Of a stretch of 64,000 bases of DNA, positions 28,544 to 53,405 are shown piece after piece (positions within the stretch are counted from its first letter, which is position 1; each line of letters starts with the position of its first letter). The stretch is from an uncultured delta proteobacterium (GTDB lineage: Bacteria; Desulfobacterota; Syntrophorhabdia; Syntrophorhabdales; WCHB1-27): NCBI GenBank assembly GCA_963810935.1, contig CAWEPK010000008.1, positions 704,001-768,000 on the forward strand. The letters run 5' to 3'. The notes below the pieces were generated by a model. The model was given only the letters and a program-made list of their open reading frames with translations, did no database searches and was not told the origin of the DNA. The position numbers were made by a program, and so were the translations under genes.

Positions 28544-28648
28544 ATTATCGGGGCTCAGCGCCCCCTCCACGAGCAAAGCCCGTGGAGCCTCCCGGTTCGG
28601 CCTTCGCATACGCTCGCTTTATGACCCTGCTGCTTGCAGCAGGGTCAT
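28544..28648. repeat. Dispersed multi-hairpin repeat, copy 1
   Basis: GGGGCTCAGCGCCCC + CTCCACGAGCAAAGCCCGTGGAG + hairpin ATGACCCTGCTGCTTGCAGCAGGGTCAT. Confidence 0.85.
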
Positions 28649-28752
28649 TTATTCCCCAGTGCGTCACATTTTCGTAAGCTTCTTGCAGGTCGGGCTGAAA
28701 GCCGCCACTGTGGCAGACTTTCCGCACGACCTGCCTTTTTCTTTCCTATCAT

Positions 28753-29262
28753 TTAGCCGGTTACTTGCAGGTCCACCCTCCTGTTGGCCGAGTAACATTT
28801 ATCCGTGGGCTCGCTGCAAACGGGCCTCTCTTTGCCGTAGCTCTTGGTATCGATGCGGTCCGCCTTGACACCCTGCTGCACGAGATATGCCTTCACGGCA
28901 TCTGCACGTTTCTGGGCCAGGGTGCGGTTATACGCCTCGTCTGCGCGTTGGTCGGCATTGCCGGAGACCTCCACCTTGGCGTTGGGGTTCTGCTTGAGCC
29001 ATGCCGCCTGGTTCTTCAGGGCCGATGCAGCCTCCGGCGTTAAGCCGGATTTGTCAAAGCCGAAATAGACGGACCGCGCCGGAGGTGCCTGAACGGGCGC
29101 CGCCGCCGCCGTTTGTGCCGGTGCGACGTGTGGTTTCGGATAAACCAACTCAGCCTCAGATGCCGGCGGAAGGGGAGTCCCTGCCGATCTCTGGTGCGAG
29201 CACCCAAACATACAGACAATCAAAAGACAGAAAAACAACGCGAGCACGGCTTTGGCAGTCAT
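28753..29262 (-). CDS. OmpA-C/Pal-like lipoprotein
   Basis: MFGC lipobox, VYFGFDKS, GNADQR, SYGKERP, NRRV. Confidence 0.88.
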   Translation of the reverse strand: MTAKAVLALFFCLLIVCMFGCSHQRSAGTPLPPASEAELVYPKPHVAPAQTAAAAPVQAPPARSVYFGFDKSGLTPEAASALKNQAAWLKQNPNAKVEVSGNADQRADEAYNRTLAQKRADAVKAYLVQQGVKADRIDTKSYGKERPVCSEPTDKCYSANRRVDLQVTG

Positions 29263-29348
29263 GGTGCCTCCTCACAGAAACGTTAGTAGCTGAAGACAGG
29301 GGCGATCAGGAATTCGAAAAGAGTGCCACAAGCCCATACCGGACTACG

Positions 29349-29414
29349 GCGAACACAGAATCAGACTCGCCTTCAGCCCCATTTTATTCTGTGTTCGCTT
29401 CTGCCGGTTGTCAA
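29349..29414 (-). promoter_or_regulatory. Putative promoter overlapped by a 13-bp inverted repeat
   Basis: Minus-strand TTGACA-N17-CAGAAT; arms GCGAACACAGAAT (29349-29361) / ATTCTGTGTTCGC (29386-29398). Confidence 0.45.
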
Positions 29415-29507
29415 CGCGGCTGCTTCACGCAGGGCAGTTGCGCAGGCAGACTGAAGCGGGCGCGCAAACAACCGGGATTTGCCCTGACCGATACGATATA
29501 TTAGAAT

Positions 29508-30020
29508 GTGCGACAAGGAGTCAACAGAGCCATAGTGGGACTTTTCAAAAAACTCTTCGGCGTCGGACCGATAGGCGCCGCTGTCAGCCTGGCCCTTCTG
29601 GCCGTCGCGGGCCGCGTGGACCGCAGCCTGGGTCATCCGGAACTACTCGGGTACCGGTTTCCGGTGGAGGCCCTCGGCGCAGTTCTTGTCTGCACCGGCC
29701 TGGCGCTTCATTTCTGGAGCATGTATATCCTGCGGAGCTGGTGGGTCGGGGGGCGGCTGTGCACCGCAGGGCCGTTCCGGTGGTTTCGCCATCCCATGTA
29801 TGCCGCCTGGATCACATTCGTGTGCCCCGGCATCGCCTTTTGTCTCGACTCCTGGGTCTTCTTAGTGTGGGCGGCCATGCTCCATGTCCTATGGCACCGG
29901 CTCGTCGAATCGGAAGAGAAAGAGATGGAGGCTCGATTTCACAACGAGTACCGGCGCTACGCCGACCGCACGGGCAGGTTTCTGCCCCGGCCGTCCCGCC
30001 GCCGTCCTTTGCGCGGCTAA
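29508..30020 (+). CDS. Isoprenylcysteine carboxyl methyltransferase/PEMT-family membrane protein
   Basis: GPFRWFRHPMY, EE...F..EY..Y...TGRFLP motifs; start uncertain. Confidence 0.85.
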   Translation: MRQGVNRAIVGLFKKLFGVGPIGAAVSLALLAVAGRVDRSLGHPELLGYRFPVEALGAVLVCTGLALHFWSMYILRSWWVGGRLCTAGPFRWFRHPMYAAWITFVCPGIAFCLDSWVFLVWAAMLHVLWHRLVESEEKEMEARFHNEYRRYADRTGRFLPRPSRRRPLRG

Positions 30021-30490
30021 GCCGTATTACCGACGCCCATAGACCTCATTCGCCGGCCCGTCCGTAAGCCAGGTTTGTTTACTGCGCCTTTAGGCACCTT
30101 CCCCGACAATGCCTCGAATACATTGGCAGCAGCCTCGAGATCTATCAGCAGGCGGGCATCGGCGGTGACATTGCCCGCGGCCCCGGCGGCCCGCCGGCGC
30201 GGCGGGACCGTGACCCAGACGTCACGGCTCGTGCACGCGACAACGTTTACGCTGCCGAGCTCCCTGGACGTCCCGGCGACGATCTTCAGGTCCGGGCACT
30301 CCCGCAGGAGGGCATCATCCACGGCATCCGATATACAAACGATCAGGGCCTGCGCGGTCCGCGCACGGCTGAGAAGCTCGCTGCGGGGTAGGGTCTCGCG
30401 GGTGGGGTTCGCAATGACCTGGAACGAGCCGCGCAGCAGATCGATGACTTCCGGATGTACCCAATGGGTGACCACGACACGTGGCGCCAT
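30017..30490 (-). CDS. PtxD-like D-2-hydroxyacid dehydrogenase substrate-binding domain only
   Basis: N-terminus resembles PtxD (VVTHWVH.E, ACT..DVWVT) and joins directly to C-terminal AA.N...L.G..P..AVN helix; no GxGxxG. Confidence 0.6.
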   Translation of the reverse strand: MAPRVVVTHWVHPEVIDLLRGSFQVIANPTRETLPRSELLSRARTAQALIVCISDAVDDALLRECPDLKIVAGTSRELGSVNVVACTSRDVWVTVPPRRRAAGAAGNVTADARLLIDLEAAANVFEALSGKVPKGAVNKPGLRTGRRMRSMGVGNTA

Positions 30491-30730
30491 GCCTTCCCCC
30501 TTTCACGGCTTCATGCGCGAAGCCCGGCCGAGCTTTCTTATGCTGCCATATAATTGTTAGGGGAGTGTAAAGGTAGTGTTAAGAGTTCGTGAATCGTGGC
30601 TTTCTATCGCCGCCTCTGGAAAAGCACGGCCGGCCGCCTTAAACTAAGAACAAATCGACACCCGATTTCCCGGCAGTGTGAACCATGAAATGAACGGAAA
30701 AAACACAGCCGCATGGGGTGAGGGGGGGCC

Positions 30731-51581: not shown

Positions 51582-51601
51582 TTACATCAAGGAGAGGAAA
51601 C

Positions 51602-51898
51602 ATGAGCAGGGTAATAATAGCGATCGTTCTCATCGGCAGCCTGGCGCTCGCCGGATGCTCATCAATGAGCCCGACCGAGCAGCGTACTGCGACCGGCGGC
51701 GCGGCAGGAGCAGCGGGCGGCGCGATACTCGGCGCCGTCGCCGGAAATACCCCTCTCGGCGCGGCGATAGGCGCGGGCGTCGGACTTGCAGGAGGCTACC
51801 TCTACAGTAAGCACGAGGAGTCACAACAAACCGCGTACCAGCAAGGTTATCAGGCGGGTACCCAGCAGCAAGCGTCGCAGCAGCAACAGAAGCAATAG
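51602..51898 (+). CDS. Glycine-zipper lipoprotein
   Basis: LAGC lipobox, GxxxG repeats. Confidence 0.85.
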   Translation: MSRVIIAIVLIGSLALAGCSSMSPTEQRTATGGAAGAAGGAILGAVAGNTPLGAAIGAGVGLAGGYLYSKHEESQQTAYQQGYQAGTQQQASQQQQKQ

Positions 51899-52095
51899 CT
51901 AAAGCGACGCAAAACCCTTCGGTGCCATGAGGTCCCGACCGGGCCTGCAAAAGCTCTCTTACCGTCGGCTTCAAGGGACGCGTGCCCCAGTTCTTCCTGG
52001 CGGTCTGCCGATTCGAGCATCCACCGGCCGCAATAATAAAGCAAGCGTATGCGCCGCGCCGAGCGGGGAGCAACTGTGTTCGATGTCAAGAGATT

Positions 52096-53019
52096 TCATC
52101 GGACGCACCAGGAGGTATTGGTTCTGACCATGGCATTCAGTATGACGAGAAGTTTTCTCATGCAGGCGGTTATTGCAACCTTGGGGAGCTTGCCGGCATG
52201 AACGAGACGTTCGTAAAAGGTTTTGATTACCATATTGTGACGGATCGCGGTGAGGGCCGCCATGTATAGCGCCGATCTGACATCCGCCCTGCCCCCGAAG
52301 ATCGTCCGTTTCCCCCGGTATTTGCCGCTGTCCCGGTTAAACGGGGCCAGGCCTGCTAAAGCGCTGATCTTCTTTCGGTTGAGTTGTCCTAGTTCGGGCA
52401 GCCGTGCAAGGAGCATGGAAGCGTTTACGGGGCCTATCCCCTTGACGCTTCTCAGAAGGTTCTCCTTTTCTCTCCATAAGGGGCTCTTCCTGATAAAAGA
52501 GGCGATATCCTTGTCTAGTTTACCGATGCATTCTTTTAACCACTCTATGTGGGCCTCTATATCGGGTCTCATCCAGTCCGGGGTGGTTTCCAGGCGGTTT
52601 CTCTCCATGGCAACCATCTCGACAAGCTGTCTTCTCCTTGCGACGAGGGTCTGGAGCCGATTGGCGTCCTTATCCTTCAGAGCCCTCGCTTCCGGCCTTA
52701 TGACCTCCCCGAAGCGGGCTATCATCTCCGCGTCTATACTATCCGTCTTGGCCAGCCTTCCCGTTGCTTTAGCGAAGTCCCTTACCTGCCTGGGATTGAT
52801 TACGACTATGGGAAGGTTGCGCAGCGCAAGAGTCTCCACGACGGGGACCTGGTATCCTCCTGTCGCTTCCAGCACTATGAGCTTCGGACGCACATCCGAT
52901 AGAAAGCGGGCGAGATCCTTTCGCCCCTCATCATTGTTTGGGAAGCTCTTTTTGATATCCGGTGTCACGAATATTTCCAAAGTCTCCTTTGCCACGTCTA
53001 TGCCTGCGAACTTTTCCAT
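52096..53019 (-). CDS. IS110 family DEDD recombinase
   Basis: [37 protein letters not shown]. Confidence 0.95.
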
Positions 53020-53029
53020 ATATTGCCCC

Positions 53030-53200
53030 TCCTTGCGAAATGCGGGCTTCATAGCCCAAGCAACTGTCCGAGCTTGTATGGAATGGGGTGTGACGACCCT
53101 TGCTCCCCGCCGGGATCATGGTCCCAGAGGCTCATCGGTCTGTCACACCCTGATGCACGGAAAGACCATTATAACCATAAATCAGGGTATGGGAGAACAT
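53030..53200 (-). ncRNA. Predicted bridge RNA in the IS110 left end
   Basis: Guide-like segments match target (GAGCCT; GCGGGGAG) and donor (ACAGTTGCT; GCAAG) in the IS621 order; ends approximate. Confidence 0.8.
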
Positions 53201-53329
53201 GGATATAAGATACAAGGCTCCGCGAGCTTCGCCCGTGGAGGGGGCGCTGAGCCCCAATAATTGCATAGTGAAACGTCGACAACGGATATATGCTGACGCG
53301 GCGATGTAACCTTCAGAAGCCCCGCCGCA

Positions 53330-53405
53330 GTGTCTCTTCCTTTTTATGAGGGGGTGGCTCCGCCGGCTTTGCCGGCGGAGGGGGCAACGCTAGCCCCAAT
53401 AATTG
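53330..53405. repeat. Dispersed repeat copy 9
   Basis: TCTCTTCCTTTTTATGAGGGGG + CTCCGCCGGCTTTGCCGGCGGAG + GGGGCAACGCTAGCCCCAATAATTG. Confidence 0.85.

Follow-up and report, generated by a model that had tools for sequence, protein, structure and literature searches.

A 64,000-nucleotide (nt) stretch of DNA (hereafter the window) from the draft genome of an uncultured delta proteobacterium (G000; 4.06 Mb, 93% complete) carries a family of short hairpin repeats, and raises the question of how a repeat that encodes no protein reaches new sites. The family, which is real and apparently uncatalogued, belongs to syntrophic bacteria, the Syntrophorhabdales and some Syntrophales, and is non-coding, non-autonomous and mobile. 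A single defined strand of the repeat (ending RRTRATTGY) is the active one; its 3′-end is fixed, its 5′-end variable and modular, and most insertions are in the sense orientation at the 3′-ends of genes and tRNAs, where they often leave a footprint that bears on how repeats resembling repetitive extragenic palindromic (REP) sequences spread. An earlier interpretation of the window made from its letters alone (the sequence-only reading) had claimed about nine intergenic copies of a REP-like, non-autonomous mobile family, spread by the TnpA protein of an IS200 insertion sequence and parasitised by an RNA-guided IS110 element, and had proposed as checks a genome-wide covariance model with a copy count, an Rfam search and a presence/absence comparison at orthologous loci.

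Anatomy and distribution of the repeat

The covariance model gives nine matches in the window, one at each claimed place, and the anatomy described by the sequence-only reading holds: a CTCC..GGAG hairpin, a GGGG(C/T)-N5/7-(G/A)CCCC hairpin and an RRTRATTG tail, together with exchangeable 5′ modules. A hidden Markov model built up from seven window copies and searched against the whole of G000 yielded 160 matches at E<0.01 (148 at E<1e-5), distributed over 129 loci. Two core types are recognised, type A with a 5-nt last loop and usually the module M1 upstream (AAAGCRAGCG...), and type B with a 7-nt last loop and usually M2 upstream (...CTTCCTTTTTATGAGG); optional palindromes are found upstream of the cores, and some apices are replaced by extra hairpins. 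Over the 160 matches, the apex reads GCTTTGC in 95, GCTTCGC in 23, GCTGATGC in 13 and GACTTTGT in 9, with another apex or none in 20. Past the CCCC, the tail is followed by a pyrimidine in 113 of 143 copies and by random sequence beyond. Five of 126 loci lie inside called open reading frames (ORFs), as suits a short, high-copy, extragenic repeat.

The claimed covariation of the stems was confirmed on 57 aligned copies, from which the structure itself was drawn: 93.9% of cells are paired and double changes occur at 8 of 15 pairs, values of which none was reached in any of 500 shuffles, and slid structures pair in 42–56%. G.T wobbles in the main stem number 60 against 8 A.C, indicating that one strand is the folded, working strand. 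The Rfam search, run on the window, gave no match at the gathering threshold.

The covariance model is positive in 35 of 41 genomes including G000 (34 of the 40 relatives), namely in 21/21 of its own family and in 2/2, 0/3 and 11/14 of other families of the order; a first pattern search, which missed type B, had been positive in 15. Copy number among the 41 genomes ranges from 0 to at least 137. Family f19 gave three weak matches, which seem to represent a single orthologous site and are excluded from membership. A phylum sample matched in 7 of 141, with one strong copy outside the order, and an exact-pattern scan found at least 97 loci, the 80 listed titles of which name Syntrophorhabdales, Syntrophorhabdaceae, Syntrophorhabdus, Syntrophus, Syntrophaceae or uncultured delta proteobacteria. 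The regions of three relatives (G001, G003 and G017) that are orthologous to 39.7–45.5 kb of the window contain no copy, so the copies are not fixed; copy 6 is likewise absent from G001 beside the orthologous gene start. The empty orthologous sites and the lack of an Rfam match bear out the view of a REP-like, non-autonomous mobile family.

One-sided duplication of gene ends

Within the window (43487–43804), three copies of a 38-bp host segment (D), the end of a nicotinate phosphoribosyltransferase gene, surround two elements; G001 and G003 each have only one copy of it. The layout at such loci is U-D-X-element-D-W, in which D is host DNA that starts at the element's fixed 3′-end and is repeated upstream. 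In G000, 20 of the 126 loci analysed reached a duplication score of at least 12 (15/45 of type B and 5/80 of type A), as did 20 of 79 loci in other genomes; the respective controls were 0.24% of 1248 shuffled pairs and 0.16% of 622. After nine rows had been dropped as array units or module matches, 31 duplications were retained from 205 loci, with a D of 13–105 bp. When the start was left unconstrained, 18 of 20 host-type matches began within −2 to +4 of TTG; ordinary gene ends gave 0/400 at a score of at least 15 and 3/400 at a score of 12.

D overlaps the end of a sense ORF in 27 of the 31 cases, and in 18 of these 27 it ends within −2 to +7 of the stop codon; in two further cases, read by eye, D is the 3′ part of a tRNA gene. 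The element's own 3′ junction is TTGY|; its 5′-end varies, and the 5′ junctions often exploit microhomology to M2 or to the stop codon. Two bases before the junction (−2), the host has G in 22 of 30 cases, a row containing an N being left out (background 0.32, p=3e-6), which matches the element's own G; at −1 it has A in 14 of 30.

Unique host sequence is repeated on either side of the element and single in the empty allele, as in insertion with a long, variable duplication. Contig C14, which is 95–97% identical to part of C12, carries D once and represents an empty allele; the filled allele on C12 reads U-D(105)-X-element-D-W and uses a new stop codon supplied by the element. Further empty sites with a single D were found at L133, L115, L005 and L006, and the same gene ends are hit repeatedly across genomes, with differing junctions or element types. 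Mismatches between D copies fall at codon position 3 in 19 of 24 cases (p=0.003 vs 50%), as expected if the two copies derive from different working alleles. Two paralogous operons, 98.8% identical over 2342 bp, have the D-X-element in common and differ in the downstream (displaced) D, which shows the cassette to move between homologues.

Several observations accompany these loci. C14, compared with C12 at ~273–284 kb, is a 95–99% identical duplicate of part of that contig, probably from a second strain in the bin. The paralogous operon ends, presumably sulfite-reductase-like, lie at ~306.0–308.4 kb of C10 and ~662.3–664.7 kb of C8 and end at the repeat, the C8 copy with a split IS200. Gene labels such as dsrB, hemY, infA and gyrA, which were presumed from the translations, served only to guide the reading. 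Tandem arrays of seven and five element-plus-host units are present at L154:50–690 and L113:1501–2025 (periods 99 and 124 bp). At L183 and L190 (G027), the end of a flagellar gene reappears together with the element, joined midway into a downstream gene through a 6-bp microhomology; the joint lies at a contig end and is either a real rearrangement or an assembly artefact.

The copies follow transcription, not replication. Of 126 loci in G000, 90 have the copy in the same orientation as the upstream gene; between co-directional genes, the ratio of sense to antisense copies is 67:15 (p=5e-9), and by gene strand it is 30:6 on the G-rich strand and 10:3 on the other (p=0.09). Orientation on the G-rich against the C-rich strand is 43:34 (p=0.36) with 49 ambiguous, the GC skew of the draft genome being weak. 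The repeat illustrates a selfish-element route into tightly packed housekeeping operons that does not break genes and sometimes rewrites a C-terminus. Since the footprint is readable at dozens of loci (a fixed 3′ junction, G at −2, a 13–105-bp duplication, sense orientation) and empty alleles are available for comparison, candidate enzymes can be tested against exact cut positions.

Candidate routes to new sites

The repeat works like a REP-type non-autonomous repeat, yet lies outside the REPs, the IS200 derivatives and the miniature inverted-repeat transposable elements (MITEs). A MITE, bounded by terminal inverted repeats (TIRs), is ruled out: the flanks show practically no inverted match or duplication (1/100 at score 12), and the duplications are long and variable. 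Prophages and other att-type integrative elements replace the 3′-end of a gene or tRNA; the repeat shares with them the U-D′-element-D-W geometry and the synonymous differences between the two gene ends, and differs in having no integrase, many unrelated target genes and a D of variable length. REP, BIME and REPIN sequences with their RAYT (TnpA-REP) proteins, as presented in parts of PMC3333891, PMC6006769 and PMC3733652, are likewise short, intergenic, high-copy, strand-specific hairpins with modular arrays, lineage-wide occurrence at polymorphic sites and a role as IS110 targets. Unlike them, the repeat has no GTAG/CGTC foot tag (tags as given in the main text of PMC3733652) and no RAYT-flanking inverted doublets; it has a single orientation tied to transcription, and a long stretch of the host gene end is duplicated on one side of it. 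The string “duplicat” is absent from the main texts of PMC3333891 and PMC3733652. Restriction-modification inserts show, in excerpts of PMC2853133 and of Lim et al. (2012; PMC3457768), a long variable target duplication with direct repeats of ~45 bp of unique host DNA, and the 2012 excerpt calls the long-duplication mechanism “not yet” recognised for short DNAs. The repeat resembles these inserts in its host direct repeats, some over gene or tRNA 3′-ends, and in having no mobility gene, and differs from what these excerpts describe in being a dispersed 75–140-bp hairpin family with one fixed end. A literature search limited to main texts found no description of the family (“Syntroph” and “Delta” are absent from that of PMC3733652).

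The account tentatively preferred, though held at somewhat less than even strength, combines trans-acting HUH-type nicking and joining by a candidate enzyme with polymerase copying and homologous re-integration. The fixed 3′ junction, the common G, the strand-specific folding and the link to transcription fit an enzyme that cuts single strands reversibly and works on non-template DNA, and copy number correlates with the number of Y1 genes (rho 0.59). On this account, an HUH-type (RAYT-like) enzyme supplied in trans would bind the hairpins on single-stranded non-template DNA and cut the element tail (TG-Y|) as well as weak host sites (G-A|) at a variable distance; the element 3′-OH would be joined to the host 5′-end, and a host polymerase would extend from the nick, regenerating D upstream. 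As an alternative to extension, an excised D-X-element circle might re-integrate via D into an empty allele, likewise regenerating D upstream and yielding U-D-X-element-D-W with allele-like differences. Homologous recombination among D copies, alleles and paralogs could then produce arrays, module swaps and cassette movement, and selection would retain the insertions that leave genes intact. The layout of a hairpin plus a short tail recalls relaxase nick sites. For TnpA-REP, part of PMC3333891 describes nick-extend-rejoin amplification, cutting in cis over >400 nt, far from the bound hairpin, excised circles and a possible use of R-loop DNA.

A number of results weigh against this account, the first being that no mobiliser gene was found linked to the repeat. 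The repeat is present at 0/30 loci sampled from among the RAYT-like genes and at 0/25 sampled loci of GIY-YIG, DUF559, four-helix-bundle and further Y1 genes; the 7 of 70 Y1 or reverse transcriptase (RT) loci with a repeat match are all IS200-type insertions or neighbours, none with flanking of the REP/RAYT style. Clustering of the neighbours returned only housekeeping genes, IS110 and IS200, with no recurrent nuclease, and Y1 matches are absent from 3 of 25 repeat-rich genomes. Genome size correlates with copy number at least as strongly as the Y1 count does (rho 0.63), and the genomes are related. A GTAG-type guide is missing from the hairpin foot, where alignment A1 shows GGGAGG/GGGTGG on the 5′ side and RRTRATTG on the 3′ side. 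No duplication is detectable at 106 of the 126 G000 loci; the nine X spacers tested match nothing else in G000, which rules them out as DNA carried from other loci; the gene calls come from a crude caller made for this analysis (3840 genes, 84% coding); and the sense bias could partly reflect selection against antisense copies.

Other candidate mobilisers were also considered. Small nucleases were searched in five repeat-rich genomes, and G000 gave a single GIY-YIG match, within a frame of 586 aa, and none to DUF559, PDDEXK_3 or 23S-IVP; an HUH-motif scan of the G000 ORFs revealed by eye no further transposase-like candidate. The RAYT-like gene of the window was rejected as mobiliser, as it has its own inverted repeats, falls below the NF047646 cut-off, and has relatives whose sampled loci lack the repeat (the 0/30 above). 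This gene region (7982–9015) encodes a 317-aa Y1 transposase with a C-terminal helix-turn-helix between perfect 27-bp inverted repeats, with short remnants on C5 and C17; for its TIR-bounded type, compare TIRYT in the consulted portion of PMC3733652.

Host repair alone and RNA-templated insertion are serious rivals. In the former, which is unlikely on present evidence, there would be no dedicated enzyme: the hairpins would stall polymerases or be cut by host structure-specific nucleases, and repair by template switching, microhomology joining or homology-anchored uptake of DNA from other strains would carry the element to further gene ends by copying and duplicate D. The lack of any enzyme linked to the repeat, the microhomology at the 5′ junctions, the allele-like differences between D copies and the exchange of cassettes between paralogs all speak for it. 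The 3′ junction, however, is fixed to ~2 nt and the host G at −2 is seen even where the element's base is kept, which points to a sequence-reading cutter and not to chance annealing.

RNA-templated, SINE-like spread, in which the element would be transcribed within operons and a nick-primed RT would copy it and then jump to the 3′-end of a host transcript, is rather improbable. Such a route would yield the fixed 3′-end, the variable 5′-end and a D reaching about as far as the stop codon or tRNA end. Orientation follows transcription, the sense strand shows G.U-type wobbles, D ends near stop codons or at tRNA 3′-ends, and the geometry of the footprint equals that of target-primed reverse transcription. 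Against these points, no RVT_1 match was found in G000, which holds exact and apparently recent duplications, nor in five other genomes with at least 20 copies; the correlation of copy number with RT count is the weakest of those tested (rho 0.37); and this route does not predict that the D copies should differ synonymously. A wider proposal would embrace either route: these repeats may, doubtful as this is, belong to a class of minimal replicators, so far undescribed and present across prokaryotes, that home to gene ends. In this class, a non-coding hairpin with one fixed end would be joined to a G-A site in the 3′-end of a transcribed gene, the end rebuilt and the spare end used as a homology arm into alleles and paralogs, by nick-and-copy or RNA-templated synthesis and with no element-linked enzyme.

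A domesticated RNA element (an mRNA stabiliser, processing site or translational coupler) between co-transcribed genes, with only incidental mobility, is improbable: the sense bias, the location just past stop codons in operons of housekeeping genes, the structural covariation and the persistence across the order would suit it, whereas the sites are not conserved, are empty in close alleles and are re-used with different junctions, copy number varies down to zero, and Rfam holds no match.

Insertion sequences and copies in the window

The IS200 and IS110 insertions in the repeat are ordinary secondary parasitism. G000 has seven IS200 elements (99% identical, two with a split tnpA), every one preceded by TAATT and terminated by TGATT. 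The repeat tail, which supplies 75 of 1235 intergenic TAATT sites, is therefore simply an IS200 target. Four of the seven sit at a repeat tail (p=4e-4; 0.004 for 3/6 independent), and two of these four share a repeat variant found nowhere else, which makes one co-transfer or gene conversion likely. In other genomes, the same IS200 hairpin ends lie at non-repeat TAATT/TAACT sites. The apex that the sequence-only reading held in common with the IS200 right-end hairpin is shared in part: the 13-mer CCGGCTTTGCCGG is indeed present at 53363–53375 in copy 9 and at 27906–27918 in that hairpin, but genome-wide it occurs only in 12 repeat copies and at 11 other places. Copy 1 does lie on the tnpA sense strand, as had been stated, but its stem differs from that of the IS hairpin.

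The repeat resembles IS200/IS605 elements and their miniature derivatives in its subterminal hairpin with a short tail, its single-strand recognition and the GCTTTGC apex of many copies; unlike them, it lacks paired left and right ends, a hairpin-foot guide and a lagging-strand bias (by local GC skew, the counts given above), and has a long duplication instead. As a non-autonomous derivative of IS200 it is rejected, as its ends are not at the TAATT/TGATT cut motifs and 31 of 205 loci carry duplications. The enzyme of the repeat is probably not the IS200 TnpA of the window, and the model of the sequence-only reading, with the IS200 right end as ancestor of the repeat and that TnpA as its spreader, is very unlikely: the 7-nt apex and the 13-mer, the TRATT of IS200 cut motifs within the tail, the tail-sited copies with their unique variant and, in one relative, a chimera (L016:1390–2112) that fuses the IS200 right-end hairpin straight to the repeat's last hairpin with loss of the TGATT end favour it, whereas the TTGY| junction lies two bases beyond the IS200 cut site (TAATT|, TGATT|), none of the seven IS200 insertions shows a long target duplication, 11 of 25 genomes with at least 20 repeat copies have no match to the window TnpA, the repeat is order-wide and the IS copies recent, and no IS200-like guide is present 5′ of either hairpin foot. 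Nor does the proposed IS-end-to-REP intermediate stand, given that IS200 only targets the TAATT of the tail and the common apex is a 7-nt motif.

Parasitism by an RNA-guided IS110 was correctly anticipated: all five IS110 copies sit in the repeat, with the left junction in M1 in each, and the four visible right junctions run on into the core. The window variant inserts at CGAGCGGGG-AG-GCTCC, and a second variant, 78% identical, at GCCGCGCCG-AG-GGGGG; target guide-like segments at matching places of the non-coding end change with each variant, and the donor guides are unchanged. With DEDD and Transposase_20 domains, a 2-nt core and guides predicted to match target and donor, the element appears to be of the bridge-RNA kind. 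Shuffled targets reached both guide matches in 11/2000 trials for the window type and in 124/2000 for the second type, for which the result is weak. IS110 elements that target REPs are known, namely IS621 and ISPpu9 (parts of PMC11208160 and bioRxiv 2025.01.17.633520), and the present elements agree with those parts in their AG core, fixed insertion position in the repeat and guides in the non-coding end; they differ in that each of the two variants has its guides set to a different AG core of the repeat, the two cores being neighbours. This known relation fully explains the IS110 part. A contig joint that skips the IS110 in sequencing runs may derive from other repeat copies.

Features of the hairpin repeat family and its surroundings in the window
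Feature	Position	Model match	Strand	Remarks
RAYT-like gene	7999-8952			own 27-bp inverted repeats; relatives in 29/41 genomes
Tenth copy, 3′-half remnant	27872..27893		-	immediately past IS200 right end
IS200-type element	27894..28542		-	649 bp; tnpA 27981-28418 (Y1_Tnp); starts after TAATT, ends TGATT; left and right hairpins
Copy 1, type A	28543..28648	28541-28595	-	H palindrome 28621-28648, M1 ~28594-28620, two-hairpin core; IS200 inserted in tail after TAATT
Copy 2, type B	42060..42135	42059-42115	-	M2 and core; G001 site empty; end adjoins ribosome-binding region of ABC ATPase gene
Copy 3	42148..42173	42147-42203	-	only 3′ (last) hairpin and tail
Host segment D, third exact copy	43487..43524		-	begins one base past element's TAATTG
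Copy 4, type B	43526..43626	43525-43581	-	identical to copy 5; 140-bp unit D-X-element
Host segment D, second exact copy	43627..43664		-	38 bp
Copy 5, type B	43666..43766	43665-43721	-	core and M2 43666-43741, plus 5′ spacer X
Host segment D, in-gene copy	43767..43804		-	last codons and stop (43774-43776) of nicotinate phosphoribosyltransferase gene, plus 7 nt
Copy 6, type A	45573..45716	45663-45716	+	H palindrome, M1, inserted X-module 45637-45673, core
Copy 7, type A, shortened 5′	46129..46216	46165-46217	+	with X-module
Copy 8, 5′ part	52038..52070		+	M1 module as far as AG core
IS110-family element	52071..53216		-	recombinase gene 52096-53052
IS110 guide-like segments	donor 53057-53067, 53072-53079; target 53103-53110, 53127-53133			
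Copy 8, 3′ part	53217..53264	53210-53264	+	core and tail; 5′ module beyond IS110
Copy 9, type B	53330..53406	53350-53406	+	holds 13-mer common to IS200 right-end hairpin; upstream of 2-hydroxyacid/phosphoglycerate dehydrogenase gene

Three DNA runs and one RNA run of the seven sequencing runs listed were examined as contigs, not raw reads. In run X1, one contig joins 42062 to 42151, so that an 88-nt unit (42063–42150) is missing, and in run X3 one contig skips 42016–42192; each is a single contig and weak. Contigs of the RNA run X6 match the repeat, which is no measure of expression. Two unrelated intergenic repeat pairs also occur in the window, at 45816–45854/48087–48125 (39 bp, 90%) and 20177–20301/25467–25591 (125 bp, 77%). 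Elsewhere in G000, the gene between two repeat copies at C12 369015–370523 and the next gene have starts that are presumably those of Ku and LigD, proteins of bacterial end joining, and a second, unrelated dispersed repeat of ~110–140 bp is present in many copies on several contigs, as in the upstream flanks at C12 415198, C15 41366 and C7 306345.

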